A DNA stretch of 58,388 nt from Ardenticatenales bacterium (GTDB lineage Bacteria; Chloroflexota; Anaerolineae; Promineifilales; UBA4811), in assembly GCA_030593075.1 (NCBI GenBank), contig JAUVHW010000001.1, positions 1-58,388 on the forward strand. The letters run 5' to 3'. This document shows, piece after piece, positions 9,773-30,073 of the stretch (positions are counted from its first letter, which is position 1; each line of letters starts with the position of its first letter). The notes beneath the pieces were generated by a model. The model was not told the origin of the DNA and did no database searches. It saw only the letters and a list, made by a program, of their open reading frames with translations. The translations under genes were made by a program, and so were the position numbers.

Positions 9773-9796
9773 GGTGTTTGCCTTAATGAATGGGCG

Positions 9797-11755: not shown

Positions 11756-12094
11756 CTCCCTAGAATGGAGCTCCCCCTCAGGGAAGGGGGGCGCTCAGTT
11801 TACAGTGCACCACCAGTAGAGTATACCAAATTGCCGGGATACCATGACCCTGCTCTGACGGTGAACTGACACCGCACTGGCGGGCACCCCCTTTGTAACA
11901 CATTCCGGCCGGAAAAACCAGTTCGTTGTGCTACGAGGAGGCACCGAATCACATACTGGTGCTGGGCGCACGGGACGGGCCTTCAGAATGTCATCGGATT
12001 GGAAACGGATTCCGATGGCTGTTCGGGAGTGCCTGTCAGTGACTGGCTCTGCGGGGGGACCAGCCGCGCGCGGTGCGGCGAGACGGTCAAGTCC

Positions 12095-14176: not shown

Positions 14177-15283
14177 TTAGGTCACCAATTCCAGATTCAC
14201 GTTCGGCACAAATGCCACGGTCCCGTCCTCCAGAATCACCTCCGCTCCACGGAACTTGACGCCACTCTCGACGGCGCGAGGCTCATTGCTTATTTCCTTC
14301 ACTCTGCCCACCGCTCCCCAGTAGGGGCTGCGCCTGACGCGCACCGCAAGATTGGCACTCAGCGCTCTCCTTGGCGAGGGCGCAGAGTCGGCAGGCTGAG
14401 ACGCCGGGAGGGGAATAATGATCTCAGGGCGAGACGGCTTCCAGCGATCGGGGAGCACCGCCAGAATGGTGGCCTGTCGTCCCTGGTTCTGCTGCAGCAA
14501 GTCAAAGATGGCAGACGAGATCGGGGCGCGCCCGACCCCTTCGGTAGCGACTACGGGAACTAACTGCTCACAGACTCGTTCCTGCAGCTCGGCAGGAATG
14601 CCGCCGACGATCAGCCCGCGCACTTGAAGCTCTTGCGCTCGGGCCAGCACCTCCTCGTCCAGAACGGCCCCACAAACCAAGATGGTTCCACGGTGAGCGG
14701 CCTGGACCTGCCTGGCGTCTAGCACCACATCGCGCTCTTTCACGCCCGTCGCCAGCACGCCGTAGCCCTCTTTGCCTGACCCCCACACGCCCTGAATCAG
14801 CGCCCCGGGAGTCTCTATCGTCACTCCGTATCCCGGCGCAACCTCTGCCACCGTACCGGAGAGCACAGCGCGCAGCTCGAATGGCTCAGGTTCGAGTTCA
14901 ATGATCACCCGACCACCGTCCGCAGCAATCACCTTTCCATCAACCGGCGATGTCACCTCGCGCACTTGCCGGAATCCACCTTTGTGCCACGCAAGCACGT
15001 CCCCCGGCCGGACACGGTCTCCCGGATTCCTGAGCATACAGCCGCGGGACCGATCGCGCGAGACGTTCAGTTCTTTGGCGACATTCACGATCAAGTATGG
15101 CTGCGGCAGGCTGGCCCGCGCCACGATGTCCCTTGGCTTGACCTGCTGCCCTGTCCTGACCAGCACATCCCCTTGCCTGGGAAGCATCCGCTCCCGTCGA
15201 ACAGTCGTGTGAGCCAAGATGTGCGTCTGATACGGGTAGAATCGGCTGCTCAGACAGGTAGCCCTCCTACGTCCCACAGCCAC
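14177..15283 (-). CDS. hypothetical protein with barrel-sandwich-hybrid-like N-terminal repeats and a KOW/SH3-like C-terminus (last gene of the large operon)
   Basis: Repeated G-D-x-V-x-x-G-x-x-[VL] strands (QGDVLVRTGQQVKPRDIVA, PGDRVRPGDVLAW, SPVDGKVIAADGGRVIIE). The C-terminal GAVGRVKEISNE...GAEVILEDGTVAFVPNVNLELV is KOW-like. An alternative start is ATG at 15187. Confidence 0.7.
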   Translation of the reverse strand: MAVGRRRATCLSSRFYPYQTHILAHTTVRRERMLPRQGDVLVRTGQQVKPRDIVARASLPQPYLIVNVAKELNVSRDRSRGCMLRNPGDRVRPGDVLAWHKGGFRQVREVTSPVDGKVIAADGGRVIIELEPEPFELRAVLSGTVAEVAPGYGVTIETPGALIQGVWGSGKEGYGVLATGVKERDVVLDARQVQAAHRGTILVCGAVLDEEVLARAQELQVRGLIVGGIPAELQERVCEQLVPVVATEGVGRAPISSAIFDLLQQNQGRQATILAVLPDRWKPSRPEIIIPLPASQPADSAPSPRRALSANLAVRVRRSPYWGAVGRVKEISNEPRAVESGVKFRGAEVILEDGTVAFVPNVNLELVT

Positions 15284-16992
15284 TGCCGGGTCTTGGCCCT
15301 GCGCTCAGCGGGGTCGGTAGGAAGTCTCAGCGGCCGGCCGCGCGCGTCGACAATTAGCCCCACTGCCCCGCCAAACACGCTGCGGCGGCAGCTGCGGCCT
15401 GGCCCTTCACCGACGTCGAAGCGTTTGAGCGGGCGCAGCTGCAGCTCCGCGCGATGACCGGGCTGTAGCGGCAGTACCTTGAGTGAGCCCGCTTCTACCT
15501 CCGTCTCCAGCTCGCTGCCGTTCTCGCGGATCATCTTGAGCCGCAGGATCTGCTCGCCTGGCTTTGCCTGGCCGACAGGCGCCACAACGCCACCCAGTTC
15601 GCGAAACGCACCCGACTCTATCACTTGGACCGCTGCCAATGGAACCACACCGGCAACGGCGCCCAAGGCCGGTGCCAGACCGTGTGTGTCCAGGGCCAAC
15701 ATGCAAAGGCCGACTGGCTGCAGGGCGTCCAGTAGCGCCAGGGCAGCCTGCCCCGGTCTGGGAACACTTCCCAACAGCGTGCCACCTAATAGGATCATCT
15801 CAACCGGTGGCAGCGTCCCCGTCGGCGTGGCATCGAAATGGCTCGGGAAGGCGACCGGGAGCGTGGACCGGATCAACTCACGCGCCAGTGCGAGCTCCAG
15901 GTGCAGCTCCTCCGATGTCACGGGAACAGTCTGGGGGAACAGCGCCTTGTTGGCCACAAAGTCCTTCAAGTCGCTGTCCGCCATCTCGTGGGGAAGCCAC
16001 CGCATGACCTGCTGCGAGTCAACCTGCTCCAGGAGTTTGGGCAGATTGTGGCCAATGCCTAGGTCGCTGCGCACCGCCAAATGGGAAATGCCGTTGAGTA
16101 CCGCCCCCATCGTCACGGATGCACTCCCCACGTCCACCCCTACCACGTTGTTTCCCAGGATTGCTCCCAGGTACTGCACTGACCAGCCGAACGCTTTGGC
16201 CGTCGGAATCAGCGCTCCGTTGGCCAGATTCCTGAGTTGCTCTGCCCCTGGCAGCGCGCCGAGCTTGCCCTTTTCGTAGAGCAGATCCAACTCGGCCTGG
16301 GCCGAATCCAGATACTCGGCGTCTACGTCTGGGCGGACGTTCTCTACTGCTCTCAATCCCACACCGCCCAGGATCTCCGCGACCATGGGGCGCAGCACTG
16401 GGTTCCCCGCGTAGATGACTGTCGGCGGGTCGGACCCCTTGTCTTGTAGCGAGATGGCCAGCGAGACCGTCTCTACCAGGTGAATCACGTTGGTCGCTGC
16501 ACCCCCACTGGTTCCGCCAGCTATCAAGAACACGTCCGGCTCTAGGGCGACCAGCTCCTGGACCCTCTCACTGTCTGATCGGCCGTCGGCCGGACTGAAC
16601 TCTTCCTCGATCGTGGTGTAGGTGGAGAGCGCCACCCGCCGGGCACTAGCCAGACTCAACTGGTCCGCGAGCCCCACCAGGACCGTCCTGAGTGGCTGCG
16701 CGGCACTGGTAGTGGCCACAAAACGATCTACGCCCCTTGTGCCCCCCTGGGATGGAATGAGCAGCTGCCCTTGCTCGCCCACAATCTCCCGGCCGGTTGC
16801 GGCTTCTACGTCTGCGACGGCGTTTATCATTCCCACCGTGATGTCAGACAGCGGATGAGCACCCGTGGAAGGAGCCTGCCCGTTGGCGATGAATCGGTAG
16901 CGCCCCTCCACCAAGTCTAGCAGGGCAACGCGTGTAGTGGCGCTGCCGCAGTCGGCTACCAAGACAGATCCTGATGTCTGTCCGTCCGTCAC
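15250..16992 (-). CDS. GlmL/MutL-family (glutamate mutase L-like) ASKHA-fold ATPase-like protein
   Basis: Phosphate-1-like VLVADCGSATTRVALLD. A second-lobe motif GVDVGSASVTMGAV. FLIAGGTSGG and ILLGGTLLG resemble actin/Hsp70-fold adenosine and phosphate-2 motifs. Confidence 0.7.
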   Translation of the reverse strand: MTDGQTSGSVLVADCGSATTRVALLDLVEGRYRFIANGQAPSTGAHPLSDITVGMINAVADVEAATGREIVGEQGQLLIPSQGGTRGVDRFVATTSAAQPLRTVLVGLADQLSLASARRVALSTYTTIEEEFSPADGRSDSERVQELVALEPDVFLIAGGTSGGAATNVIHLVETVSLAISLQDKGSDPPTVIYAGNPVLRPMVAEILGGVGLRAVENVRPDVDAEYLDSAQAELDLLYEKGKLGALPGAEQLRNLANGALIPTAKAFGWSVQYLGAILGNNVVGVDVGSASVTMGAVLNGISHLAVRSDLGIGHNLPKLLEQVDSQQVMRWLPHEMADSDLKDFVANKALFPQTVPVTSEELHLELALARELIRSTLPVAFPSHFDATPTGTLPPVEMILLGGTLLGSVPRPGQAALALLDALQPVGLCMLALDTHGLAPALGAVAGVVPLAAVQVIESGAFRELGGVVAPVGQAKPGEQILRLKMIRENGSELETEVEAGSLKVLPLQPGHRAELQLRPLKRFDVGEGPGRSCRRSVFGGAVGLIVDARGRPLRLPTDPAERRAKTRQWLWDVGGLPV

Positions 16993-16998: not shown

Positions 16999-17727
16999 CT
17001 ATCCGCTGCCCAGCAGGCGCATGATCTCTTGTGGTACTGATTTGATGAATTGCGCGCGCTCGGTCAGGAGCGAAAGGCTGGCGATCAGCGCCCCGGCGAA
17101 GAGCGACCCCAGGGCGACCATCAGAAAGATCTGGCCTATCCAGGCAATCGGGCGTAGCCAAGTTGGTCTATCCACTTGCCCCTCACCAGTGGGCTCAGCA
17201 CCAAAGTGGAAATAGAGCAGAGATGAGATCGTGCCGAGTATCACTACTGCGGCAGCTCCGACGTTGACCAGGTCGCTGTGGTCTGGGAGAAGAGGGTTTC
17301 CTGAGCCAGGAAGCAAGGGCAGGGCAGCGGCGTTCACTTGTGGCATCAGAGTCCCCAGAACCGCGCCACCCACGGCCACGGCTGCGCCTACGCCCATCGC
17401 GAATCCCATCACTACGTTGCCATACGGAGCAGTGCGAGGTGATAGTTTCAACAGCAGCAGGACTGCCAGCAACGCGACCACCGGTTGGACCTGCTCCTCA
17501 ATCCCGAGAGCGGCTCCTGACTGCAGTTGCCTGAAGGGTTCGACGAACTGGGGAATGAGCACCGCATAGACAGTCACGACCACCGCGTATGCCAACCCGA
17601 CACCAACCAGTAGGTGTGCTGTCAGCCGGTACAATGGGTTGTCCCCCGCTAGCACGTAGCTGTAGATCATCAGCGTGAGCACGAGGCCCAGCCCCAAGCC
17701 CAGCGCCTGAACCGCTGGGCTAGCCAT
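16999..17727 (-). CDS. polytopic integral membrane protein, unknown family
   Basis: At least six hydrophobic helices. The ATG lies inside the last codons of the giant gene (8-nt overlap). Confidence 0.8.
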   Translation of the reverse strand: MASPAVQALGLGLGLVLTLMIYSYVLAGDNPLYRLTAHLLVGVGLAYAVVVTVYAVLIPQFVEPFRQLQSGAALGIEEQVQPVVALLAVLLLLKLSPRTAPYGNVVMGFAMGVGAAVAVGGAVLGTLMPQVNAAALPLLPGSGNPLLPDHSDLVNVGAAAVVILGTISSLLYFHFGAEPTGEGQVDRPTWLRPIAWIGQIFLMVALGSLFAGALIASLSLLTERAQFIKSVPQEIMRLLGSG

Positions 17728-20700
17728 GATGCGGTCTCCCGACCAGTCCAGCCACGCTCCCCCAGATTAACCCAATGACGGAGAGCAGTACGGCGACGCC
17801 AATCCCCAACGCCTGGGAGTCATTCAAGCTAGCTGCATTCCCCTGCTGGGGCTGTTCGCCTCCAGCCCCGTACCGAGCCGCACCGGAGACACCAGCTACT
17901 ATTCCTTCCAACTGCCTGGGGTCGTTCTGATAGTATGGAAGGGCCCAGGGTTCGAGGCCGGCGCTCACTCCGGTCACTATCGGCACCGCCTCCATGCCCG
18001 GCAGCCGCCTCGTCTGCTCGATCCACCCCGTCAGGTCGTCGCGCGCGGCAGCGAGAACCAGAACTAGATCTACATCGGCCAGCGTATTGGTGAGCCCGCC
18101 AGCTGCCGGGGCGACTCGAGCCAACCCGCTGCCCAGATAGTCGTTCGCAGGGAACACCTTCCAGGGATTGGCGGCAAAGGCCTGCACGCCAACCGCCCCT
18201 CCCGGAATGTAGCCCAGGTTGAGGTAGTCTTGGCCGTATGCATATCCATAGTCGTCGGCCAGCTCTTGCATCAGGCTCTGGGCGGTCTGAGGGCCGGCTG
18301 GCTTGGTGCTCACCGTCAGAATGCGCGCTCTGCGGTCCATCAGATGGCCCACCATGGTGGAGGAAATGGACCCGAGCTCGCCGGCCGTGGCTGGGGAGTA
18401 CTCAAAGGCAACCAGTGCTAGGGCTTCATCCGGGAGGTTTGCCAACACATCATGGGCTGAGCGAATCTGGTCCGCAATCGCCGGCTGGCCGCTGGCCGTA
18501 GGTAGCGGATTCCCCAGAATGACTGGCAGGAGCACTGCCAGCAACACCACGACGGCGATGACGACCTGCTCAATCCAACCCTGCGGACCGCTGGGCGGCG
18601 ACATTTCCCGTCTGGCTGCTGGACCGGCATGGACAATCTGTTCCAGGACCTGAGCATGACGACGCTCGTGCTCGGTAACGGCCAGCTCCTGTGCCGCTTC
18701 CCTCAAGGGGTGCGCGGGGATAGCTAGGTCGGCCGGCAGCGCCCCTCTCACGCCTACGAGCGGGCCTGCTGGTTCCTCCGGTTCGGGCTCGCCTGCTTCC
18801 GTCTCGTCGGTCTTGAGGGCCTCCAGCCAATCCGGGACCACTGCCTGCGAGAGCTCCAGCCCCTCCTCCGGAGCTAGATCCTCTTCGGCGAGTTCGCCCA
18901 GCCGGGCAGGGGCGCCTGAAGGGCGGAGCCAGTCAACGACCTCTGGCTCGACTGTCGCGTCTGGTTCCGGCTGCAGCCAATCTCGAGCCTCTGTCTCTCG
19001 GACGTCCGCTGGTTGCAGCCGTGGAGCCTGGGTGCTCACATCCGGACGCGGCGCGCTGGACTCCTGGGATGATTTCCAGACAGCAGATGCATCGGGTTCT
19101 GGCTGTCTAGCCACGTAGGGAGCCAGCAAGGCGTCCGCCGCCGGCGGGGAATCTCCACCGCCCTCTTGCTCAGCGAGCCACTCCGCGAATTCGGCTGCCG
19201 CGGATGAGTCGCTGTCCCCGGCAAGCCAATCTGGTAGCTCTGGAGGGACCAGCCCGTCTGTCGCCTTCCGCTTCTCGCTCGGGGTCGGCTCCTTAGCGGG
19301 CGGCGGTGCGATTGTGTCAAGCCAGTCTGATAGGGCCTCCGCCTCCGCTGGGGTGGGAGATGGTGCGCGGGACTCCTCGGCCGCCGGCTGGGACGTGAGC
19401 TGCACACGGTCGGCGCCCGTGTCGCTGGGTGGTAGGAGGTCCAGCAGTGCACGGTCCGGCATCTCCAGCGTACCGTCGTCGGGAGTGACCTCCTGGAGCC
19501 AATCCGCGAGCTTGTCGAACTCTGACACCTCCTCCCCGGCCGGTGGTCCAACCTCATCCAGTCTCTCTTGGACAGCTTCGGTGGGCCGCGCTTCCTCGAA
19601 CCGTTCAGGAAGCTCTTCGAGCCCGATGACCGCCCCGGTGGACGGCGGCAGGAGGTCTTCCGGTCTTTCCAGGACGGCTTCGCTGGGCCCCCCTTCACCG
19701 AACTGTTCAGGAAGCTCTTCCAGCCCGATGACTGCCCCGGTGGACGGTGCCCCAGGTGCCTGGGAGATTGCCGGTTGCGGTGCGAATTCCCTCAGCCAAT
19801 CCGGCACCTCGCCAGGCTCTATCTCGGCTTCGGTGGCTGAGGGCGCCCAGCCTGCCGGGGCTTGCAGGCTTTCCTCTTCGGGAGCAACTTGGTCGACCCA
19901 ATCCAGCAACTGACCGGTGTCAATGTCGCCTCTACCTACTCCAAAAAGTGGTGATATCTGTGATTCTACCCCGCCGGAAGGTGGGGGTGGCGCGGCCGGC
20001 TCACCTCCGGCATCAAGGGCAGGCGTCTCGGGAGCGGATTTCCGGGGAGCAAACTCGGCCAGCCAGTCTGGCACTGTTCCGGGTTCGATCTGGCCATCCT
20101 GGGCGGGCGCTGCGAGGTCCGGTGGCCCTTGCTGCTCATCATCGGTGGGAGCGACTTGGTCCACCCAAGCTATTATCTCGCCGGTGTCGATGTCGCCTCT
20201 GCCTACCCCAAACAGCGGCGGTATATCGGGCTGGGCCGGTTGAACTCCCTCTGGCGCCTCACTAGGTGCGATTTGGGCATCCGGAACAGGCGCTGCGGAG
20301 GTGATGCCGCGGGGCGCGAATTCCTCCAGCCAACTTGGCAGTTCGGCGGGGGGCAACTCGTCGCCGGCTGGGATCGTCAGGCCCTCTGGCGCTTCTGGCA
20401 TGCCTTCCTCGGGCGAGACCTGCTCCACCCAAGCCAGCAACTCACTGGTATCGACCTCTCCTCTACCTACTCCGTTGAGGGGCTCGACCTCTGCCACAAC
20501 TTGCTCGAGTGGTTCCTGCGTCCCTGTCGGCTCATCCTCGACCTCGGCGGCCGGGGGTTCCTCGGAGACGGCCTCTCCGGGTGCTAGGGCCGCGAGCCAG
20601 TCGGGCCCCTCGCCCGGTTCAGCAACGCCTTCCGCAGCTTGTGGAGGCACCGCCTCCTTTGCTGGTTCCAGTGTCCTGGCGGGCTCGGCCGGCACTTGGG

Positions 20701-23700
20701 CGACCGCAGGTGCTCCGACAGCTTCCGCAGGGCCAACCTCCTCCGCTGCGTCGGTGGCGGCCTGCCGGGGCGCGAACTCTTCCAGCCAGTCCGGTATTGC
20801 GCCGGGGGCCAGCCCGTCGTCGCCGGCCGCGATCGCCATGCCCTCTGGCATTTCTGCCATGTCCGCCTGGGGCCCGGCTTGGTCTACCCAAGCTATCATC
20901 TCGCCGGTGTCGACCTCTCCTCTGCCTACTCCGATGAGGGGCTCGACCTCTGCCACAACTTGCTCGAGTCGTTCCTGCGTCCCCGTCGGCTCCGCCTCGA
21001 CCTCGGCGGCCGGGGGTTCATCGGAGACGGCCTGTCCGGGTGCTAGCGCTGCGAGCCAATCTGGCACCTCGCCTGGCGCTACCACGCCCTCAAGCTCTAC
21101 GGCCGTCGGCTCCTTGGGGACGGCTTGTCCAGGCGCCAGCGCCGTGAGCCAATCTGGGACCTCGCCCGCTTCAGCGACACCTTCGGCAGCTGGCATCGTC
21201 AGGTCGGCCGGAGCCTCTGCGATGCCCTCCTGTGGTGCAATCTCGTCCACAAAGGCGCGCGGTTCGCTGGTGAGAACTCTGCCCTTACCTGGCTCAAGGG
21301 GAGATGGCTTCTCGGGTTCGACTTGGTCGAGTTCCACGAACGCCTCAGTGACTTCGGCCTCCGGCACTGGAGCCGTAAGGTCCTCCAGCGCCTGCAGTGT
21401 GTCCTCCTGTGGCGCGATTTCATCGACCCAGGCGCGCAGTTCGCCGGTGACGAGTCTGCCTGCGCCGAATTCGGGGGGAGTGGGCATCTCCTGCCCTGGC
21501 TGTTCGAGTGGCGGTGCTTCAGCCAGTTCGGGCGCAGCCTCGCTGGCCGCAGGCTCGCCGGCGGCTGCCGGACCTGCAGCCTGCTTGATGGGTTCTGGCG
21601 CCTCAGGGGCGGCCTCCCGGGGCGCGAAGCCCTCCAGCCAGTCTGGCAGTTCGCCCGGCTCGATCTCAACAGCCTCAGCTCCAATAGCCAGACCCTCTGG
21701 CATCTCTGTCACGACATCCTGGGGCTCTGCTTGGTCCACCCACGCCAGTAGCTCGGTGGTGTCGATCTCTCCTCTGCCTACTCCAATAAGGGGCTCGACC
21801 TCTGGTGCAGTTTCCTCGGCAGGTTCCTCCGCCCCCGTCGGCTCAGGCTCGGCCTCCACAGCTGGGGGCTCTTCGGAGACAGCCTGTCCGGGTGCGAGGG
21901 CCGCAAGCCAGTCGGGCACCTCGCCCGGTTCAGCACTCGGTTCAGCAACGGCTTCGGCAGCATCCTCAGGCGCCTCCTCCGCTGGCTGTAGGGCCTCAGG
22001 GGGCTCAACCTCGGCTTCGGCGGCCGCAAGGACCTGGGCTTCAGGAGGCGCCTCCTCCTCCGCAGAGACAGCCTGCCCGGGTCCGAGAGCCGCAAGCCAA
22101 TCGGGCACCTCTCCCGGTGCAGCAACGGCTTCGGCAGCTTCTGGAGCCGCCTCCTCCACTGGCTGCAGGGCCTCAGGGGGTTCAGCCTCCGCTTCGGCGG
22201 CGGCAGGTGCTTTGACATCTTCCGGCTGGGCAACCTGCTCCGCCGGTTCCGCCGCCTCAGGGGCGGCCGGGCGGGGCGCAGAGTCCTCCAGCCAGTCTGG
22301 CAGCTGGGCGGGTTCAGCCCCGGCCTCGTCGACCGCGATAGCCAAGCCATCTGGTAGCTCTGTCACCTCCTCCTTAGGCCCGACTTGGTCCACCCATGCC
22401 AGCAGTTCGCCGGTGTCGATCTCTCCTTTGCCTACTCCGCTGAGGGGCTGGACCTCTGGTGTAGTTTCCTCAGCAGGTTCCTGCGTCCCCGTCGGCTCAG
22501 GCTCGGCCTCTACAGCTGGGGGCTCCTCGGAGACAGCCTGTCCGGGTGCGAGGGCCGCGAGCCAGTCGGGTATCTCTCCCGGTTCAGCAACGGCTTCGGC
22601 AGCTTCTGGAGCCGCCTCCTCCGCTGGCTGCAGGGCCTCAGGGGGTTCAGCCTCCACTTCGGCGGCGGCAGGTGCTTTGACATCTTCCGGCTGGGCAACC
22701 TGCTCCGCCGGTTCCGCCGCCTCAGGGGCGGCCGGGCGGGGCGCATAGTCCTCCAGCCAATGTGGCAGCTCGCCGGGCTCGATCTCAACCTGCTCGGCTT
22801 CGATGGCTAAAACCTCTGGTGTCTCTGTCAGGTCACGTTGGGGCCCGACTTGGTCCACCCATGCCAGCAGTTCGTCGGTGTCGATCTCTCCTCTGCCTAC
22901 TCCGCTGAGGGGCCCGACCTCTGGTGTAGTTTCCTCAGCAGGTTCCTGCGCCGCCGTCGGCTCAGGCTCGGCCTCTACAGCTGGCGGCTCCTCGGAGACA
23001 GCCTGTCCGGGTGCGAGGGCCGCGAGCCAGTCGGGCACCTCGCCCGGTTCGGTGACAGCTTCGGCGACTTCTGAAGGTACCACGTCCTTTGCCGGTTCCA
23101 GGGCCCCAGGGGGCTCAACCTCCACCTCGGCGGCAGGCTCGGCCTCCGCTTCGACAACTGCAGCCTTCTCGACCGGCTCAGGGGCTTCGGCGCGCCGGTC
23201 CTCTGCCTCGGTAGATTCTCGAGGGGCAGCCTGCTCCATCTGTTCCGCCGCCTCGGCGAGGCCGGTCTCTACCTCGACGGCGACCTCCCCCTCGGCCTCC
23301 GCTTTGGCGGCTTCTGGAGCAGCAATCCCCTCTGCAGGTTGCGGGACCTCAGATGGTTCGGCTCTAGCCTCGACAGCGGGTTCCGCTGACTCGGTAGGGA
23401 CGGCGTGCCGGCGCATTATCTCGCCGAGCCAGCCTGTCTTCCCTTTGGGCTTGACCCTGATCTCGGTGACTTGCTCCTCTGGCCCGGCAGTGGGGGGCTT
23501 GGCTTCCTCGGTGGATACACCGTGCCGACGGACGATGTCGTTGAGCCAGCCTGTCTGTCCCGGGGGCACCGCCCGGACTCCAACCTCATCAGGTTTCTCG
23601 TCTGTCTCCTCCGAGCTTGGCTCAGGCTCCTCGGGGATACCGTGCTGGCGGACGATGTCGCCAAGCCAGTCCGTCTGTCCTGGGGGCGCCGCCCGGACTC

Positions 23701-26377
23701 CAACCTCATCAGGTTTCTTGTCTGTCTCCTCCGAGCTTGGCTCAGGCTCTTCGGGAATACCGTGCCGGCGGACGATGTCGCCGAGCCAGTCCGTCTCCAT
23801 GACCGGCTGAGCCGTGGCCTCTTTCGGCGGGGCCTCCCTCCGCGAGGGCCAGGCGAGCTGGTCGGGTGTCTCGGCGGGCCCGGGCTTGGTTCCGGCTGGA
23901 GGGGCTGGTGCCTCCGGGACAGTCTCCAGAGCAGTGCTGGAGTCTCGGGGGCGGCGCTTGCGTGGCTCGGGGAGTTTGTGCCGGCGCGCGATGTCGCCAA
24001 GCCAGTCGGTCCCCATGGCTGGTCGAGCCTTGAACTCTTTTGGCGGGACCTCCCCTAGCAAAGGCTCGGCGAGTTGGTCCGGGCCCTCGGCGGGCTCAGC
24101 ACTGGCCTCAGCCAGGGATTCCTCCGATATCGCCTCGGCTGGCGGAATCTCTGCGAGCGGTGGCTGCTCAGCAGGTGCATCCTCTATGTCGCCCGGCTCT
24201 ATCTCGGCCTTTGCCTCTACTTCCTCAATCATGGGTTCCGGGGGTGTCATCTCCCTCGGCTGCTCCGGCGCCTCGACCGTCTCGGGCTTGGGACCTGCCG
24301 CTTGGCTCTGGGCCTCCGTGGGCAGCCCCTCGGGCAGGACGATCTGCGCAAGCCACTCGGGCGCCTCAGCAGGGCTGACCTCGGTCTCCTCAGGCTGCGC
24401 CCTGGCCTCGGGCGATACAGCTTCCAGTGGAGCAATGTCTTCCAGCTTTTCTGGCGTCTCGGCGGGCTCGGCCTCGGTGGCAGCGGGCTTGCCCTGGACC
24501 TCGACGGGCATGGCCTCCGCAGCCAGTTCGGGCGCCTCCGCGGGCCCGACCTCGGCCTCGCCTGGCTGCGTCTCAGGTGCGGCGTCCGCCGGAGCAATCT
24601 CCTGAGGTGGTGCTGGTGCCTCGACGGGCTCGGCCTCAACGATCTCTGGAACTGCTCCTGAGGGTTCGGCCTCCGCAAAGGCTTCCGAGACGTCCTCAAC
24701 CACGGCTTCCACTGGGCGGGCCTCTGTCTCGACCTCGGCGGCCGATGGCTCGGCTGTTTCTGGCACCGTGATTTCTCGCAGCCACTCTGGTGCCTCATCG
24801 AGCTTGGTCTCGGCGGCGCTGGGCTCTGGTACCTGCTGCACGGCTTCAGCGGGCGCGGCTGTCTCGAGTGATTCTTGCTCCTCAGGCGGCTCGATCTGGA
24901 CCACCGGAGGCTGTGCAGCTTCTGCCGCACCTTCTGCCGCACCTTCTGCAGCCGTAATTCCCTGCAGCCAGCCGGCCACCTGACCAGGTTCGATTTCGGC
25001 GGCCGGAGGCGCCGGAGCCTCCAAGTCAGTTTTCCCGGCCGTGATCCCATCCAGCCAACTGGGCGCCTCGCTGCCCTGTGTCCCAGCCTGAATCGCGGTT
25101 TGGTCAGAACCGGCCTCTGGAGGAGCGGCCAGCGCTTCCGGCGCAGGTCCCAGCTTGTCCAGCCATGATGGCAATCCCCCAGGGCCGGCTGCTGGTTGCT
25201 CCATCGCCGCTCCCTCAAGCCACTCCATCAGCTCGCCGGTCTTGGCTGCTGTAGGGCCCGCAGGGGGCTCAGGTCTCTCTGGGGTCAAGTCCCGCGGCGC
25301 CATATCTTGGAGCCAGTCCGGTAGCTCGCCGGGTTCTACGGAGACGTCCCCCGTTGGTGACAGGCTGTCGGGCGCGGCTTGCTCGACCCATCCGCGCAGT
25401 TCGCTGATTTCAACCTTGTCCTGGCGCGGCGCAACTTCATCGACCCATCCCGTCAGCTCGCCGGTCTCGAGCTTGCCCTTGCGTACCTCGACGGGTGGAG
25501 GCTGTGGCTCGACCTCGGTGGCGGCCGGCTCGGCTTCTTCCGCCAGGGGTTCGTGCTCGGCTTCCGCGACTGCAATCTCCAGGTCGGCTGGGAACTCGAG
25601 CGCACCTTCGTGTGGCGCGACCTCGTCGATCCACGCTCGCAGTTCGCCGGTGAGGATCCTACCCTTGCCGATGTCGGGTGAGGAGGGAGCCTCCTCCTGG
25701 GATAGTTCCCGCAGCCATTGGGGTGTCTTCTGGTCGCTGTCTGCTTCTTGCTGGGTGGGACCATCCTCCCGTGCGGCCATCAGGTCGGGTGAGAGGTTGA
25801 CCAGCCAGTCCGGCACCTCGTCCTGGGCGGCTCCCGCTGAGCCCGCCTTGTCTGTTGCGCTTGGCGCTCTAGGTGCTTCTCCGGCGGGTGTGGGGATCTG
25901 CCGAGGCGGCGCTGTTGGCTGGCCCACACCTTCGCGGGGGGTGGCGCTTGCCTTTGCTATCCCGGGCGGTTCCGGCGTTTCGCGGAATCGGCTCAACGTA
26001 TCCTCGTCCGCCAGGGGCCCCGTTGTCCACGGCCCCGGTGTGGGCTTTGCTGGCGCTGCTGAGCTGGCTTCAGACAGGCCCGGCTGCAGGTCGGCCAGCC
26101 ACTCGGGCATGTCAGCAGCGGGCGATGGCTCTCTACTGGGCAGCGAGAGGCCGCGCACCGAACTCTCTTGGGCGTTCCGGTCTTGGGCCGGGCTACGTCC
26201 AGCTATTGGGATCATCCTGGCGCCGCATTCGTCACAGAAGACGTTGCTGAATGGGTTCATTGCGCCGCATGAAGGGCATCGTCCTGCCGTGTCAGGGGCT
26301 AGCTTCTCCCCGCAAGAGCCGCAGAACCTACTGCCCTCGCTGATGGGGCTTGCGCACTTGGGGCAACGCTGTGCCAT
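17720..26377 (-). CDS. giant (2885-aa) double-zinc-ribbon protein with an acidic Trp-motif repeat array and a C-terminal TM-loop-TM membrane module
   Basis: Uninterrupted 8.6-kb ORF. The N-terminus has two CxxC-N10-CxxC knuckle pairs (CPKC..CGSC, CPSC..CDEC). About 2500 aa are E/A/P-rich repeats. The last 286 aa (17723-18580) contain IEQVVIAVVVLLAVLLPVIL, a loop of about 235 aa, and ALGIGVAVLLSVIGLIWGSVAGLV. Confidence 0.9.
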   Translation of the reverse strand: MAQRCPKCASPISEGSRFCGSCGEKLAPDTAGRCPSCGAMNPFSNVFCDECGARMIPIAGRSPAQDRNAQESSVRGLSLPSREPSPAADMPEWLADLQPGLSEASSAAPAKPTPGPWTTGPLADEDTLSRFRETPEPPGIAKASATPREGVGQPTAPPRQIPTPAGEAPRAPSATDKAGSAGAAQDEVPDWLVNLSPDLMAAREDGPTQQEADSDQKTPQWLRELSQEEAPSSPDIGKGRILTGELRAWIDEVAPHEGALEFPADLEIAVAEAEHEPLAEEAEPAATEVEPQPPPVEVRKGKLETGELTGWVDEVAPRQDKVEISELRGWVEQAAPDSLSPTGDVSVEPGELPDWLQDMAPRDLTPERPEPPAGPTAAKTGELMEWLEGAAMEQPAAGPGGLPSWLDKLGPAPEALAAPPEAGSDQTAIQAGTQGSEAPSWLDGITAGKTDLEAPAPPAAEIEPGQVAGWLQGITAAEGAAEGAAEAAQPPVVQIEPPEEQESLETAAPAEAVQQVPEPSAAETKLDEAPEWLREITVPETAEPSAAEVETEARPVEAVVEDVSEAFAEAEPSGAVPEIVEAEPVEAPAPPQEIAPADAAPETQPGEAEVGPAEAPELAAEAMPVEVQGKPAATEAEPAETPEKLEDIAPLEAVSPEARAQPEETEVSPAEAPEWLAQIVLPEGLPTEAQSQAAGPKPETVEAPEQPREMTPPEPMIEEVEAKAEIEPGDIEDAPAEQPPLAEIPPAEAISEESLAEASAEPAEGPDQLAEPLLGEVPPKEFKARPAMGTDWLGDIARRHKLPEPRKRRPRDSSTALETVPEAPAPPAGTKPGPAETPDQLAWPSRREAPPKEATAQPVMETDWLGDIVRRHGIPEEPEPSSEETDKKPDEVGVRAAPPGQTDWLGDIVRQHGIPEEPEPSSEETDEKPDEVGVRAVPPGQTGWLNDIVRRHGVSTEEAKPPTAGPEEQVTEIRVKPKGKTGWLGEIMRRHAVPTESAEPAVEARAEPSEVPQPAEGIAAPEAAKAEAEGEVAVEVETGLAEAAEQMEQAAPRESTEAEDRRAEAPEPVEKAAVVEAEAEPAAEVEVEPPGALEPAKDVVPSEVAEAVTEPGEVPDWLAALAPGQAVSEEPPAVEAEPEPTAAQEPAEETTPEVGPLSGVGRGEIDTDELLAWVDQVGPQRDLTETPEVLAIEAEQVEIEPGELPHWLEDYAPRPAAPEAAEPAEQVAQPEDVKAPAAAEVEAEPPEALQPAEEAAPEAAEAVAEPGEIPDWLAALAPGQAVSEEPPAVEAEPEPTGTQEPAEETTPEVQPLSGVGKGEIDTGELLAWVDQVGPKEEVTELPDGLAIAVDEAGAEPAQLPDWLEDSAPRPAAPEAAEPAEQVAQPEDVKAPAAAEAEAEPPEALQPVEEAAPEAAEAVAAPGEVPDWLAALGPGQAVSAEEEAPPEAQVLAAAEAEVEPPEALQPAEEAPEDAAEAVAEPSAEPGEVPDWLAALAPGQAVSEEPPAVEAEPEPTGAEEPAEETAPEVEPLIGVGRGEIDTTELLAWVDQAEPQDVVTEMPEGLAIGAEAVEIEPGELPDWLEGFAPREAAPEAPEPIKQAAGPAAAGEPAASEAAPELAEAPPLEQPGQEMPTPPEFGAGRLVTGELRAWVDEIAPQEDTLQALEDLTAPVPEAEVTEAFVELDQVEPEKPSPLEPGKGRVLTSEPRAFVDEIAPQEGIAEAPADLTMPAAEGVAEAGEVPDWLTALAPGQAVPKEPTAVELEGVVAPGEVPDWLAALAPGQAVSDEPPAAEVEAEPTGTQERLEQVVAEVEPLIGVGRGEVDTGEMIAWVDQAGPQADMAEMPEGMAIAAGDDGLAPGAIPDWLEEFAPRQAATDAAEEVGPAEAVGAPAVAQVPAEPARTLEPAKEAVPPQAAEGVAEPGEGPDWLAALAPGEAVSEEPPAAEVEDEPTGTQEPLEQVVAEVEPLNGVGRGEVDTSELLAWVEQVSPEEGMPEAPEGLTIPAGDELPPAELPSWLEEFAPRGITSAAPVPDAQIAPSEAPEGVQPAQPDIPPLFGVGRGDIDTGEIIAWVDQVAPTDDEQQGPPDLAAPAQDGQIEPGTVPDWLAEFAPRKSAPETPALDAGGEPAAPPPPSGGVESQISPLFGVGRGDIDTGQLLDWVDQVAPEEESLQAPAGWAPSATEAEIEPGEVPDWLREFAPQPAISQAPGAPSTGAVIGLEELPEQFGEGGPSEAVLERPEDLLPPSTGAVIGLEELPERFEEARPTEAVQERLDEVGPPAGEEVSEFDKLADWLQEVTPDDGTLEMPDRALLDLLPPSDTGADRVQLTSQPAAEESRAPSPTPAEAEALSDWLDTIAPPPAKEPTPSEKRKATDGLVPPELPDWLAGDSDSSAAAEFAEWLAEQEGGGDSPPAADALLAPYVARQPEPDASAVWKSSQESSAPRPDVSTQAPRLQPADVRETEARDWLQPEPDATVEPEVVDWLRPSGAPARLGELAEEDLAPEEGLELSQAVVPDWLEALKTDETEAGEPEPEEPAGPLVGVRGALPADLAIPAHPLREAAQELAVTEHERRHAQVLEQIVHAGPAARREMSPPSGPQGWIEQVVIAVVVLLAVLLPVILGNPLPTASGQPAIADQIRSAHDVLANLPDEALALVAFEYSPATAGELGSISSTMVGHLMDRRARILTVSTKPAGPQTAQSLMQELADDYGYAYGQDYLNLGYIPGGAVGVQAFAANPWKVFPANDYLGSGLARVAPAAGGLTNTLADVDLVLVLAAARDDLTGWIEQTRRLPGMEAVPIVTGVSAGLEPWALPYYQNDPRQLEGIVAGVSGAARYGAGGEQPQQGNAASLNDSQALGIGVAVLLSVIGLIWGSVAGLVGRPHHG
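20300..23100 (-). repeat. intragenic super-repeat array, about 465-bp period, inside the giant ORF
   Basis: Six or more units encode ...GEVPDWLAALAPGQAVSEEPPAVEAEPEPTG...GVGRGEIDTGELLAWVDQ...EPGELPDWLE.FAPR.... The youngest pair, 22120-22294 vs 22585-22759, differs at 3 of 175 nt by manual alignment. Confidence 0.8.
23400..24015 (-). repeat. five basic DWLGDIVRRHG(I/V)P modules; the central copies are on a 120-bp period
   Basis: GTDWLGDIARRHKLP, ETDWLGDIVRRHGIP, QTDWLGDIVRQHGIP, QTGWLNDIVRRHGVS and KTGWLGEIMRRHAVP. The sequence starting at 23521, 23641 and 23761 aligns almost base for base. Confidence 0.8.
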
Positions 26378-26380
26378 GGG

Positions 26381-28429
26381 CTAGAACTCCCGCGCGCTCC
26401 CGGCTTCGTCGGGACCGGCGTCTGCAAGGGGGGCCGGCACTTCCGGCGCAGCTCTGTTGGGTCTTAGTTTGTCGAGCCAGGAGGGCAGACCACCAGTGTC
26501 GGCTGCGGGCTCCTCCGCCGCTGCTTGATCGAGCCACTCCATTAACATTCCCGTCTTGGCTGCGGCCGCCGGACTCATAGGCTCAGTTTCCTGGGGCGGC
26601 GCCATTTCTTGGATCCAGTCGGGTACCTCGCCGCGTTCTACTGTGGCGCCCCCCGCTGCTGCCTGCTCAACCCATCCGCGCAGTTCTCCAGTCTCGACCT
26701 CGTCCTGGCGCGGTGCGATTTGGTCGAGCCATCCAGTGAGTTCACCGGTCTCGACCTTGCCCTTATGCACCTCGGGCGCTGGAGGCTGTGGCTTGACATC
26801 AACGGCCGGCTCGGGTTCTTCCGTGACCGGAATCTCCAGGTGCGCCGGGGAACCGAGATCAGCTTCGTGGGGCGCGACTTCGTTGATCCACGAGCGCAGT
26901 TCGCCGGCGGGGATTCTGGCCTTGCCTGTGTCCGCCGAGGGTGGGGTCTTCTTGGAAGGTTCCTGCAGCCACTGAGGTGGTTCCTTGTCGCTCTCTGCTT
27001 CTCGTTGGGGCGGTCCCCCCTCCCGTGCAGCCTGTAGGTCGGGCGCGAGACTGACCTGCCACCTGGGCACCTCGTCCTGGGTGCCTGCCCTAGCAGGCTC
27101 CTCTGACGCTGCTTCCTCGAGCCACTCCATTGACATGTCGGTCTTGGCTGCGGCCGCCTCAGTCGGAGGCTCGGACCTGGCCGCCGGCGCTATTTCTTGG
27201 ATCCAGTCGGGTACCAAGCCGGGTTCAAGTGCGGGGTCCCCCAAAGCCGCCGAGCTGTCGGGCGCGCCCTTCTCAACCCACTCGCGCAGTTCTCCGGTCG
27301 CAACTCTGTCCTGGCGCGGTGCGATTTGGTCGAGCCATCCAGTGAGTTCGCCGGTCTCGACCCTGCCCTTGTGTACCTCGGCGGGTGGAGGCGGCGGCTT
27401 GACGTCCACTGCCGGCTTGGGTTGTTCGGCGACTGGAATCGCCAGGTTTGCCGGGAGATCGAGCTCAGCCTCGGTTAGTGCAACCTCGTCGATCCATGAC
27501 TGTGATTCGCCGGTGCTGATTCTGCTCTGGCGTGTGTCCGCTGAGGGTAGCGCCTCCTGGGAAGGCTCTTGCAGCCACTGAGGTGGTCCCTGCTCGCTGT
27601 CTGCTTCTCGTTGGGGCGGTCCGCCTTCGTTTGCAGAATCCAGATCGGGTGGCAGATCGGCCCGCCCCCTGTGCGCCTCGCCCTGGACGCCTGCCGGTGC
27701 AGGCTCCTCCACCGCGGGTTCATTGAGCCACTTCCTTAGCCCGCTGGTCTTGACCGCTGCATCTCCCGCCGCGGGATCGGATGTCGCCGGCGATGCCACT
27801 TCCTGGAGCCAACCGGGTACCTCCTCGGATTCGGGGGCGGTGTCCCCGCATGCCGCCGAGCTGTCGGGCGCGCCCTTCTCAACCCACTCGCGCAGTTCTC
27901 CGGTCGAGACTCTGTCCTGGCGCGGTGCGACTTCGTCGAGCCATCCAGTGAGTTCGCCGGTCTCGAGCTTGCCCTTGCGGACCTCGGCGGGTGAGGGACT
28001 CGCTTCCGCTGGCGCTGACGGCCCTGACATTTCACGGAGCCGGCGAATTGTGTCCTCGTCGGCCAGGGGGCCCGTTGTCCACGGCGTCGGCGTGGGCGTT
28101 CCTGGAGCTGCCAAGCTGGCCTCAGTCAGGCCTGGCTGCAGCTGGGCCAGCCAGTCGGGTATGTCGCCATCAGGCGTGGCTTCTTTACTAGGCAGAGAGA
28201 GGCCGCGAACCGAACTCTCTTGGGCTTCCTCGCCTGGAGCCGGGCCAGGTCCAGCTATTGAGATCATCCTGGCGCCGCAGTCATCACAGAAGACGTTATT
28301 GAATGGGTTCATGGCGCCGCATTTGGGGCATCGTCCTGTCGTGTCAGGGGTCAACTTCTGGCCGCAGGAGGGGCAGAACCTGTTGCCGTCGCTGACGGGG
28401 TTTGCGCACTTGGGGCAGCGTTGCGCCAT
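26381..28429 (-). CDS. 682-aa paralog of the giant protein: double zinc ribbon plus three Trp-motif super-repeats, no membrane module
   Basis: 48 of the first 60 residues are identical to the giant protein by manual alignment (MAQRCPKCA.P.S.G.RFC.SCG.KL.PDT.GRCP.CGAMNPF.NVFCD.CGARM). The rest is KGK(L/V)ETGELTGWLD..APRQD.V.TGELR.WVE..., VPDWIQE and PPQWLQEP. Confidence 0.9.
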   Translation of the reverse strand: MAQRCPKCANPVSDGNRFCPSCGQKLTPDTTGRCPKCGAMNPFNNVFCDDCGARMISIAGPGPAPGEEAQESSVRGLSLPSKEATPDGDIPDWLAQLQPGLTEASLAAPGTPTPTPWTTGPLADEDTIRRLREMSGPSAPAEASPSPAEVRKGKLETGELTGWLDEVAPRQDRVSTGELREWVEKGAPDSSAACGDTAPESEEVPGWLQEVASPATSDPAAGDAAVKTSGLRKWLNEPAVEEPAPAGVQGEAHRGRADLPPDLDSANEGGPPQREADSEQGPPQWLQEPSQEALPSADTRQSRISTGESQSWIDEVALTEAELDLPANLAIPVAEQPKPAVDVKPPPPPAEVHKGRVETGELTGWLDQIAPRQDRVATGELREWVEKGAPDSSAALGDPALEPGLVPDWIQEIAPAARSEPPTEAAAAKTDMSMEWLEEAASEEPARAGTQDEVPRWQVSLAPDLQAAREGGPPQREAESDKEPPQWLQEPSKKTPPSADTGKARIPAGELRSWINEVAPHEADLGSPAHLEIPVTEEPEPAVDVKPQPPAPEVHKGKVETGELTGWLDQIAPRQDEVETGELRGWVEQAAAGGATVERGEVPDWIQEMAPPQETEPMSPAAAAKTGMLMEWLDQAAAEEPAADTGGLPSWLDKLRPNRAAPEVPAPLADAGPDEAGSAREF
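26600..28000 (-). repeat. three ~605-bp (about 200-codon) tandem repeats inside the 682-aa ORF
   Basis: The K-G-[KR]-[LV]-E-T-G-E-L-T-G-W-L-D coding block recurs near 26750, 27355 and 27965. One copy of the same block occurs in the giant gene near 25470. Confidence 0.75.
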
Positions 28430-28432: not shown

Positions 28433-29056
28433 TTATAGATCCCGCTCGCTGTGCGGCTGGTCAATCCCAACCAACACCCGTATGCCGGCTGCAATGGTGC
28501 CCAGTGCGACGCCCAGCAGCATACCCCGGGCTCCGGCCGCGGAAAAGACGTGGACCAGCCAGCAACGCACGTCGCCCGCTACCTGGGCCACCTCACCGGG
28601 CAGTGGCAGCGCAGCCAGGAGAACGAGGATGATGGTACCCACGAAAACAGAGGTGGGAAGCGAAGGTCGTTTTCGCATAGCGCGGAACGCGGCCGAGACC
28701 AGAAAAACGGCGAGCAGCGAGGCTGTCGCTGCCTCCAGCGGTGCCAGCACGAAACGAAACACCCAAGTAACACCCGCTCCGCTTGGCCCTTGGTGTTCAG
28801 CAGCGGCAACTGCTATCACAACTACAAACGAAAAGAGGAGGGCGGTGCTGTAGGGCCAGTCTCGTTCTTGGCTTACAATGCGGCGCCCGTGAACGACCAG
28901 CAAGTTGACGACGCCCAACACAAACGCCGCGGCCGCCAACGCGGCCGCCCAACGGACGAAGAGAAGATGGACCCGGAATCCCGGGCCGACGAAATACCCG
29001 AGCAGCGTTGCCCCGCCTGACGCGACGGCAACCACTGTGGGGACACGCTGCCTCAC
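28433..29056 (-). CDS. polytopic integral membrane protein, unknown family
   Basis: Five to six hydrophobic helices. Only 3 nt separate it from the downstream zinc-ribbon gene. Confidence 0.8.
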   Translation of the reverse strand: MRQRVPTVVAVASGGATLLGYFVGPGFRVHLLFVRWAAALAAAAFVLGVVNLLVVHGRRIVSQERDWPYSTALLFSFVVVIAVAAAEHQGPSGAGVTWVFRFVLAPLEAATASLLAVFLVSAAFRAMRKRPSLPTSVFVGTIILVLLAALPLPGEVAQVAGDVRCWLVHVFSAAGARGMLLGVALGTIAAGIRVLVGIDQPHSERDL

Positions 29057-29069: not shown

Positions 29070-29822
29070 CTAGAACAGCGACACTCCCAACGTGCGCAGC
29101 AGCGCGGCCACCAGGATCAGCGCCACGACGCCGAACCGCACTGCATCTTGTGCTTGCAGACTCGCCAGCAGGGCGGGCTTTCGGCTTAGGTAGGCCGGCA
29201 CTGCATACACCTCTTCTCCTATCAGCGGCGCGTCGGAAACTGCGAAAAGCATGGCCATAGCCTGCGGGTCGTCGGTGCCTGCTATTTGCGTGATGCCGCT
29301 CTGTGCGGCGGGGTGAGCCAGCAGCAAGGCCTCAGGGCCAAAAGAGCCAATCATCACGTTGACGGCTGTTTCCTCCGGCCGCATGTGGGTCGAAGCGCCC
29401 AACGCGTAGATGGTCGGTTGTGGGGCTACCATCTCGACCTGTGCGGAATCGAACTCGTGCAGTAGGTCGCTGTGGGCACAAGCCTGGCGTAAGCTGTCTT
29501 GTGCCGCTGCCATCACCAGCGGATCGGCGGCCGTTACCAGCGGCGGTGCACCAGCCGAGCATGCTTGCTTCCCCACATGGTCTAGCGCAGCGAGCCCCGC
29601 CAGTGTCGTCGCTGTCGTCGAGTCGGTGAGGGCGCCTGTTCCCAGCGAGACGTGTATTCTCTTTCCTGTCTCCACCGCCCCACCCACCACGTAGGGCAGG
29701 TTGTCGAGCGCCTGGATGCGACGCACGTGGACCTGGTGGCCTTCTTTGATCCTCTGCGCGAGAAAGAGGATCAGTGCTAGCATCGAAAGGACCGCAAATG
29801 CACCCAATATCAGAGTAGCCAC
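29070..29822 (-). CDS. bitopic membrane protein (N- and C-terminal TM helices flanking a ~190-aa domain), unknown family
   Basis: TLILGAFAVLSMLALILFLA at the N-terminus and FGVVALILVAALLRTLGV at the C-terminus. The GTG start overlaps the upstream stop (TAGTG). Confidence 0.8.
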   Translation of the reverse strand: MATLILGAFAVLSMLALILFLAQRIKEGHQVHVRRIQALDNLPYVVGGAVETGKRIHVSLGTGALTDSTTATTLAGLAALDHVGKQACSAGAPPLVTAADPLVMAAAQDSLRQACAHSDLLHEFDSAQVEMVAPQPTIYALGASTHMRPEETAVNVMIGSFGPEALLLAHPAAQSGITQIAGTDDPQAMAMLFAVSDAPLIGEEVYAVPAYLSRKPALLASLQAQDAVRFGVVALILVAALLRTLGVSLF

Positions 29823-30073
29823 TAGCGCTCATCCAATCGTGTTTGGAGCAGATCTAGCGCCTCGGGTTGCTCCAGCAGGCGCGCGTATTCGCTGACCTGA
29901 TCGGCGCCGGCGATCAGGCTGAGCGCCGGTTGGGCTACCCAAAGCAGCTGGCCGCCAATCAGCGCAAGGGGACGCGCAGCATCCAGAAGGGTGCTGGTCA
30001 CGCCAGCGACACCCCACCGGCGGACGCGTTCCACAATCTGGTCCACCAACTCTATCTGCCGGCTCTCGTCCAT
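29822..30073 (-). CDS. small (83-aa) hypothetical protein, first gene of the large operon
   Basis: ATG at 30073 (codon 41 of ORF 29822..30193). The longer ORF would start upstream of the predicted -35/-10 elements (30152-30180), so the shorter form is preferred. It contains a hydrophobic stretch, LALIGGQLLWVAQPALSLIAGA. Confidence 0.55.
   Translation of the reverse strand: MDESRQIELVDQIVERVRRWGVAGVTSTLLDAARPLALIGGQLLWVAQPALSLIAGADQVSEYARLLEQPEALDLLQTRLDER

Follow-up and report, generated by a model that had tools for sequence, protein, structure and literature searches.

High-valency arrays of short linear motifs (SLiMs) are a defining feature of eukaryotic scaffold proteins and are rarely documented in bacteria. 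In the endocytic adaptors epsin, Eps15 and AP180, arrays of DPW, DPF, FxDxF and WxxF motifs bind the appendages of AP-2, a mode of binding thought to work by avidity, and W-acidic motifs bind kinesin light chain. On the bacterial side, FtsZ carries a landing-pad sequence of the form D-I/L-P-x-F-L-R/K, and RodZ and ZipA are head-linker-membrane tethers of the cytoskeleton. The C-terminal conserved peptide of FtsZ is a 'landing pad' which follows a variable disordered linker and binds FtsA (an ASKHA-fold protein), ZipA, SepF, EzrA and MinC (PMC3418248). Haloarchaeal CdpC combines zinc ribbons and a long disordered linker with a membrane anchor for FtsZ1 (bioRxiv 10.64898/2026.07.16.738847), and Ruc is a small, soluble chaperone consisting of a zinc ribbon plus an intrinsically disordered region (IDR; PMC7448276). 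Here we describe a giant protein encoded on a 58,388-nucleotide stretch of DNA from an Ardenticatenales bacterium (contig JAUVHW010000001.1, hereafter 'the window') whose long linker carries an array of tryptophan-centered motifs. SLiM arrays are already known as a kind. The present one is found in a bacterium, and its motif, protein family and operon had not been described before.

The giant gene (17720..26377) lies on the minus strand of the window, as do all operon genes and protein features located below, and encodes 2,885 aa. Its open reading frame (ORF) and translation give a layout of double zinc ribbon, a 2,544-aa acidic disordered linker, a transmembrane (TM) helix, an alpha/beta domain and a second TM helix. 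The minus frame is fixed by homology at both ends, the N-terminus matching Pfam DZR and the C-terminus matching family homologues in-frame, and by a ratio of nonsynonymous to synonymous differences (pN/pS) below 1. The linker (aa 56-2599, 18581..26212) is composed mainly of A (17.2%), E (16.8%) and P (14.7%), has no Cys and only 2 Tyr, and carries a net charge of -428, corresponding to -0.17 per residue.

Within this linker, 47 of the 51 tryptophans are followed by L, V or I, while composition-preserving shuffles gave a mean of 8.4 and a maximum of 16. Formal pattern counting confirmed the enrichment: strict PDWL occurs 16 times (shuffle mean 0.02), W[LVI]xx[hydrophobic][AGTSVE]P 29 times (0.24), the TGELxxW[VIL][DE]-type pattern 10 times (0) and WL[GN][DE]I[VAM]R[RQ]H five times (0), although such shuffles overstate independence as many motif copies stem from tandem duplication. 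Conservation in orthologues and across the family is the stronger evidence that the motifs did not arise by chance. When every W was sorted individually, 27 fell into the class [P/T/A]xWL, 12 into TGELxxW[V/I/L][D/E] and five into a basic class, WL[G/N][D/E]I[V/A/M]R[R/Q]H; three were other W-L sites and four belonged to no motif (W117 in PWTTG, W843 in AWPSR, W2177 in GWAPS and W2434 in VWKSS). The original prediction had placed every W in one of three motif families, which holds for 92% of them. Its 'about a dozen' TGEL-type and exactly five basic motifs were recovered, whereas its 'about 35' copies of [P/T/A]xWL require the five basic and three other W-L sites to be added to the 27 of the class itself (27+5+3).

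The three classes can be counted separately, but all are variants of one core, W-phi-x-x-phi (phi, hydrophobic), usually capped by P. A position-specific profile showed that they share W, L/V, two variable residues, a hydrophobic L/I/V/F, A and P, and that this core is usually preceded by (P/T)-G-E-(L/V)-P-D, so that it can be written phi-P-D-W-L-x-x-phi(-A-P). The i, i+1, i+4 pattern is that of one face of a short proline-capped amphipathic helix. Derived forms in the giant are GxGRGExDTGELLAWVDQVxP and TDWLGDIVRRHGIP; motif peptides of the array are EPGELPDWLEEFAPR, GVGRGEIDTGELLAWVDQVAP and TDWLGDIVRRHGIP, and the family consensus peptide is EELPDWLxxLR.

The original prediction had named conservation of the W-centered cores above that of the spacers as one of two points on which it could fail. 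We analyzed ten compact orthologous genes of ~645 aa from metagenome-assembled genomes (MAGs) of Anaerolineae and 'Chloroflexia', 62-85% identical to the reference P0005. The genome contig scan used P0005 alone and returned only close Anaerolineae and 'Chloroflexia' relatives, a set that suits estimates of nonsynonymous over synonymous substitution (dN/dS) but is poor for taxonomic breadth. Mean pairwise identity was 0.80 in the windows from W-3 to W+6 and 0.42 in the remaining linker (n=10; Mann-Whitney p = 2e-12), and the folded C-terminal domain reached 0.79. Nei-Gojobori dN/dS values from six pairs of compact orthologues were 0.02-0.125 for motifs, 0.21-0.32 for spacers and 0.065-0.135 for the C-terminal domain. 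The sole invariant islands of the linker alignment were IPDWLKxTEAxF, IDDDWLxxLLxEAGV, KPxWLxxLEAxSxIK, PPxW and PAELPxWLEAxRP, and the spacers carried many indels. These data show that the motif cores are held as tightly as a folded domain, while the E/A/P spacers change faster in both sequence and length. The prediction therefore stood on this point.

The second point was whether the motifs would turn out to belong to a folded repeat when modelled, and here, too, the prediction stood. AlphaFold of two consecutive super-repeats (aa 1105-1414) gave a mean predicted local distance difference test score (pLDDT) of 49.9, a predicted template modelling score (pTM) of 0.17 and no strands. Helices of 4-11 residues were formed only at residues 12-15, 63-73, 102-105, 167-170, 218-228 and 257-262, which are the six W motifs of the modelled segment. 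In a model of the last 505 aa, built on a 120-sequence alignment, the alpha/beta domain exceeded pLDDT 90 while most of the linker stayed below 50. In this model the motifs of W2400 and W2517 each form a short helix; pLDDT 69 was attained in the W2517 block alone, and the motif of W2384 lies in a block that climbed to ~60. On the Uversky charge-hydropathy measure the linker, with a mean hydropathy H of 0.443 against a boundary value of 0.474, plots as disordered and the C-terminal domain as folded. Periodic W positions and a 155-aa higher-order unit could also be produced by a folded tandem-repeat domain, solenoid or beta-rich, with W in its core. We consider this very improbable in view of the low model scores and missing strands, the many indels in orthologue spacers, the disordered-side position of this Pro/Glu/Ala-rich linker and the fact that the giant protein matched no repeat family in Pfam or NCBIfam. 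The earlier view of a short linear motif array in a disordered spacer, and not of a folded repeat, is thus borne out by both disorder and core-over-flank conservation.

The array of the giant has a history of duplication. A super-repeat block (aa 1105-2215, 19733..23065) consists of a ~155-aa unit with three motifs, which can be written A, PGEVPDWLAALAPGQAV; B, GVGRGEIDTGELLAWVDQVxP; and C, EPGELPDWLExFAPR. The units could be aligned, and Tandem Repeats Finder reported periods of 465 bp (x2.3 at 87%) and 120 bp (x2.4 at 90%). The latter lies in a second block (23378..24040) holding the five basic motifs (W792, W864, W904, W944 and W983) with the consensus (T)(D/G)WL(G/N)(D/E)I(V/A/M)R(R/Q)H(G/K/A)(I/V/L)(P/S) in a 40-aa unit. 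Judged by their sequences, these basic motifs appear to have been amplified from a single 'LTDWLGATAP' element conserved in relatives. Among the relatives and loci examined, TGEL-type and basic motifs were not found outside the window.

Directly upstream of the giant gene, at higher window coordinates, lies a 682-aa paralogue (26381..28429) with a zinc ribbon matching Pfam DZR and 20 W, 18 of which sit in W-[LVI] motifs. It aligns with the first ~410 aa of the giant, with an internal triplication, and lacks the TM helices and the C-terminal domain, making it an untethered copy of the array. Relatives carry a single gene at this position. The nearest ones, whose ATPases are 62-66% identical to that of the window, carry ~20 motifs of the PDWL type in one gene of ~1,000 aa. 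In 70 fetched loci, complete genes of the family measured 479-1,044 aa, and the longest other protein among the 150 matches listed had 1,143 aa and 25 W. The giant is therefore 2.5 to 2.8 times as long as the longest other members seen, with about twice their W, and both it and the paralogue are singletons in a collection of 15 billion proteins. Lineage-specific tandem duplication has thus enlarged the array from the ~20 motifs of the nearest relatives to 47, and has added an untethered copy. One possible role of the paralogue is to compete with the tethered array, or to serve as its decoy, in soluble form.

We asked whether most of this array might be redundant repeat expansion or in part an assembly artefact, with only an ancestral handful of motifs that matter and the rest being young duplicates. 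The tandem repeats at 87-90% DNA identity, the singleton status and exceptional length of the giant and the ~1,000-aa genes of its nearest relatives would all fit. However, an intact 8.6-kb frame joins the homologous N- and C-termini, and selection is visible among the copies themselves. The five super-repeat copies have a pS of 0.38 in both motifs and spacers (pairwise 0.14-0.54), yet pN/pS is 0.31 in motifs versus 0.585 in spacers. As the copies have diverged this far while their motif pN stayed at half that of the spacers, individual motif copies have been maintained. The paralogue and the N-terminal part of the giant likewise keep the cores while their spacers have diverged. We therefore regard wholesale redundancy as quite unlikely. 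The value of 0.585 also qualifies the notion that the spacers drift freely: they change faster than the cores, but not without constraint.

In some MAG contigs the family gene is split into two to three ORFs (L009, 7357-9239; L091, 6261-9276; L092, 6232-9277). For L091, short-read data (Logan) hold an unbroken gene of 1,004 aa, which suggests that the splits reflect frameshift errors of sequencing in the acidic repeats and not pseudogenes.

To place the giant among its homologues, a family profile was searched against 1.84 billion cluster representatives. At E<=1e-3, 3,993 proteins matched, the weaker of which may include unrelated zinc-ribbon proteins, and at least 1,830 clusters, formed at 50% identity, matched at E<=1e-30. 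Members are named 'hypothetical protein' in their sources, and sequence and profile searches with the family profile returned no match in the PDB. Homology of the C-terminal domain (44-51% identical to the closest relatives, ~30% to compact members), the zinc ribbon and a site in the operon flanked by g207 and g242, with a PF13941 gene downstream, place the giant in a Chloroflexota family defined by a zinc ribbon, an ELPDWL linker, a TM helix, an alpha/beta domain and a second TM helix. The CxxC...CxxC pattern is present in 116 of 140 representatives that start with Met.

The W-motif array is a trait of the whole family and not peculiar to the giant. Among the 150 matches listed, 144 were usable, and their regions ahead of the TM helix had a median length of 513 aa and a median of 12 W (range 0-25). 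A logo of 1,793 W from 144 representatives sharing <=50% identity showed W-[LVIM] at 87% of sites; the positions before W held L (-3) in 41%, P (-2) in 76% and D (-1) in 64% of cases, and the one after it (+1) held L in 78%. Read in order, it gives E/D, E/D, L, P, D, W, L, x, x, L/M/I, R, or (E/D)(E/D)-L-P-D-W-L-x-x-phi as a consensus. Across 125 proteins, motif number rose linearly as linkers became longer (r = 0.90), by 2.9 for each extra 100 aa, which indicates that linkers grow by adding motif-bearing modules. Motif density was likewise similar, with a family median of 2.2 per 100 aa and 1.85 per 100 aa in the giant. Outside the family we saw no comparable array: a query with the paralogue linker returned only itself and one family member, and among 2,972 ORF segments of the fetched loci, ORFs with at least three PxW[LIMV] were only the family gene or the window's paralogue.

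The regular spacing of the motifs (median 37.5 aa in the giant) and their density, which stays at ~2 per 100 aa throughout the family, could also describe a sticker-and-spacer polymer or entropic spring. The W cores would then act as homotypic stickers, which might pair with the basic RRH motifs, and the spacers of E/P/A/V would form a PEVK-like elastic chain. Such a chain would compact, condense or act as a ruler or tether ~0.9 um long, with no need of a separate partner. Low-complexity E/A/P spacers, a basic block embedded in a polyanion and a copy number varying freely between lineages are consistent with this idea. Against these stand the L-P-D-W-L-x-x-phi consensus, which at >=64-78% per position across the family goes beyond the specificity that a generic aromatic sticker calls for, a charge density of -0.17 per residue that disfavours self-association, and the restriction of the basic block to a single lineage. 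We judge this explanation unlikely.

A further question is where the linker resides. The double zinc ribbon (aa 5-52, 26222..26365) contains 8 Cys and aligns with positions 1-45 of the 45 positions of Pfam PF12773 DZR (E = 1.1e-9; 38.7 bits versus a gathering cut-off of 27.3). The first TM helix (aa ~2598-2621, 18515..18586) was detected by a hydropathy scan and as the AlphaFold helix 218-241 of the 505-aa model, and Arg residues stand ahead of it, on the presumed cytoplasmic side. It is followed by the family-defining alpha/beta domain (aa ~2636-2839, 17861..18472), Rossmann-like and predicted to be extracytoplasmic, which was modelled at pLDDT >90 and for which homologues were found. No Pfam model matched this domain, and Foldseek against the PDB returned nothing at E<=1e-3, with generic Rossmann-like matches only. 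After the second TM helix (aa ~2847-2880, 17738..17839) relatives carry a basic C-terminal tail (RRRGNG, KKKEK). Both termini and the linker are predicted to lie in the cytoplasm, since the protein has no signal peptide, its head is a Cys8 zinc ribbon, Arg residues precede the first TM helix and the tails of relatives after the second one are basic.

W prefers interfaces, the i, i+1, i+4 pattern is amphipathic, the giant is itself membrane-tethered and its operon is rich in membrane proteins. The W-L mini-helices might therefore be membrane-interface anchors whose W and L dip into the bilayer, so that the linker would run along the inner face of the membrane or be pinned to it again and again. 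Known membrane-targeting helices such as those of MinD and FtsA are longer and basic. In the array, by contrast, the predicted helices span only 4-11 residues rather than the ~10 or more with basic flanks expected of such anchors, acidic residues flank the W (E/D at -4/-5, D at -1), and lipid insertion would not call for the conserved P-D cap. An anionic bacterial membrane would repel a linker whose net charge is -428. Such flanks and charge fit docking to proteins and speak against attachment to an anionic membrane, making the anchor explanation rather unlikely.

Considering these data together, we favor, with a probability of roughly 60%, that the disordered, polyanionic cytoplasmic linker is an array of proline-capped W-L mini-helices for multivalent, membrane-tethered docking in a Chloroflexota-specific protein. 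Each core would be a low-affinity docking site whose W, next residue and i+4 hydrophobic residue form one face, set within acidic flanks, and the pocket of the partner would accept W and L beside such flanks. The array as a whole may serve as a multivalent, membrane-tethered capture or scaffold line that provides avidity for a cytoplasmic partner, which is probably oligomeric or abundant. Multivalent docking, as well as the oligomeric nature and the identity of the partner, is what we infer from the features of the array. The best candidate partners would be the two soluble proteins of the operon, a PF13941 ASKHA ATPase and a 368-aa KOW-like protein.

Several points weigh against this docking model. 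No soluble operon product is consistently basic across lineages: the 368-aa protein has an isoelectric point (pI) of 9.6 here but 4.9-7.2 in relatives. Several motif copies are recent duplicates, so that part of their similarity is inherited, and the spacers of the giant are not neutral, as their pN/pS of 0.585 shows. The AlphaFold model of the central repeats rested on a 5-row alignment. In addition, the contig is of metagenome type, and the exact copy number of a tandem repeat with 87-90% identity could be mis-assembled.

How does the array compare with the systems described above? Like endocytic SLiM arrays, it has many aromatic cores of 4-8 residues with acidic flanks in a long disordered region, and its copy number varies between homologues; avidity, as assumed for the endocytic arrays, would be expected here by analogy. 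It differs in the order of its residues (P-D-W-L, not D-P-W), in being bacterial without appendage or TPR partners nearby, and in being anchored between a zinc ribbon and a membrane domain, with docking putative. With the FtsZ peptide it shares a hydrophobic-P-x-aromatic-L core, which in FtsZ becomes partly helical on binding, and a location in or after a variable disordered linker. The FtsZ peptide has an ASKHA-fold partner, and an ASKHA ATPase is co-operonic with the array gene. Eighteen of the 51 W sites match [LVI]P.W[LIM] and thus show the phi-P-x-aromatic-phi arrangement of the landing pad. However, the basic residue of FtsZ at +2 is found in only one of 51 sites of the giant (R/K) and in 6% of family sites (R). 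Moreover, the FtsZ peptide is a single terminal copy built on F, whereas the array has 5-51 internal copies built on W and its host protein is not FtsZ. We regard this resemblance as a lead and not as a classification.

In overall architecture the giant resembles RodZ, ZipA and CdpC, with a small folded head (here a zinc ribbon), a long disordered linker and membrane attachment. There is no sequence homology, and the linkers of those tethers are not described as carrying conserved high-copy motif arrays. The C-terminal half of RNase E is, like the array linker, a bacterial IDR with short conserved recognition segments, and Ruc, like the giant, joins a zinc ribbon to an IDR. In RNase E, however, each site is unique with a different partner, and neither protein has a repeated W motif. 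The likeness of CdpC and of Ruc to the giant is one of architecture alone.

The array gene is part of a conserved operon. This starts with an 83-aa protein (29825-30073), placed by synteny, followed by the likewise syntenic DUF6754 protein (29070-29822), which consists of a TM helix, 200 aa and a second TM helix. Next comes g207 (28433..29056), a 207-aa polytopic membrane protein with 5-6 hydrophobic segments in the hydropathy scan, and, after the array protein, g242 (16999..17727), a 242-aa polytopic membrane protein with ~6 such segments; both are conserved in the operon. Downstream lie the genes for the soluble ASKHA-fold ATPase (580 aa, 15250..16992), for g368 (14177-15283), the soluble 368-aa protein with a barrel-sandwich-like N-terminus, a Cpl-7-like repeat and a KOW-like C-terminus, and for a 167-aa protein (13595-14098) with a TM helix, a P/T/E-rich stretch and a second TM helix. 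The general order is 83-aa protein, DUF6754, g207, zinc-ribbon/PDWL protein, g242, PF13941, a soluble protein of ~330-370 aa and the TM-P/T/E-rich-TM protein. From DUF6754 to g368 this order is kept in the first ten loci (L001-L010), and gene calls show the same operon order in two closer relatives (L091 and L092). Full-text literature searches for DUF6754, PF13941 and PDWL or LPDWL-type motif strings found nothing relevant, and PADLOC defence-system models gave no meaningful match to the operon.

The ATPase matches the GlmL/'MutL' family PF13941 over profile positions 1-447 of 450 (Pfam E = 7.4e-64). Its orthologues in MAGs of Anaerolineae and Chloroflexota carry the label 'glutamate mutase L', but the window's ATPase scores far below the cut-offs of the NCBIfam equivalogs GlmL and Or-4 and, by these profile scores, is a member of PF13941 and not a glutamate-mutase GlmL equivalog. 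PDB searches with the protein and with its profile found no match. As for g368, its profile matches the Cpl-7 cell-wall-binding repeat 5i8l_A (E = 2e-9, aa ~146-177) and weakly matches KOW/SPT5 barrels of the SH3 fold (aa ~271-335); the N-terminus resembles a barrel-sandwich hybrid. This mixture of domains is odd given that the protein has no signal peptide. The DUF6754 protein and the C-terminal domain of the giant have a common layout of TM helix, ~200-240 aa and TM helix. Homology between the two was considered and rejected (BLASTP E = 0.09; hhalign probability 6.5%).

Two further elements of the giant are conserved outside the three motif classes, 'SVRGLSLP' after the zinc ribbon (aa ~72-80) and 'GPLxGxRGAL' before the TM helix (aa ~2533-2545), and are kept family-wide or clade-wide. 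The giant and the paralogue also have in common 'PWTTGPLADEDT', which includes W117 (window 26027-26029; W117 of the paralogue, 28079-28081). Long plus-strand ORFs across the span of the array gene, such as 20301-22748 (815 aa), are antisense artefacts. The AT skew is strongly negative at 20001-28000 (-0.24 to -0.33) because of the E/A/P codon composition of the two minus-strand genes.

Downstream of the operon (7073-13450, minus strand) are genes for an AAA_22+Trans_reg_C regulator, PspA/IM30, a ~400-aa protein, an SBP+VWA protein and a 278-aa protein. They are syntenic with the operon in L091 (13427-20765) and L092 and absent beside it in the Anaerolineae locus L001. The region 34436-51959 is a metabolic neighbourhood seemingly unrelated to the array. 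It holds a glycolate-oxidase-like FAD/FeS pair, LarA-like and Ldh_2 genes and two carboxyltransferase paralogues, as well as a biotin carboxylase, an oxaloacetate-decarboxylase-like subunit, KAS II and KAS III.

The giant and its relatives provide a clear bacterial example of a SLiM array with selection on the motifs as strong as on folded domains, and a natural valency series of ~5 to 47 sites within one family. They flag a large unannotated Chloroflexota family together with an eight-gene membrane system. The conserved operon points to a few candidate partners, among them an actin-fold ATPase, and motif peptides of this size lend themselves to direct screens for binding. As a more tentative proposal, which we hold to be possible but less than even in likelihood, the Chloroflexota may share a hitherto unrecognized membrane machine built around the PF13941 actin-fold ATPase and five membrane proteins, with the ELPDWL array as its hub for recruitment; the disordered tether would capture many copies of a polymerising or oligomeric partner by avidity. 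If true, this would represent a bacterial counterpart of the eukaryotic high-valency SLiM scaffolds, with a valency that is evolvable from 5 to 47 sites and a soluble paralogue as a possible competitor.

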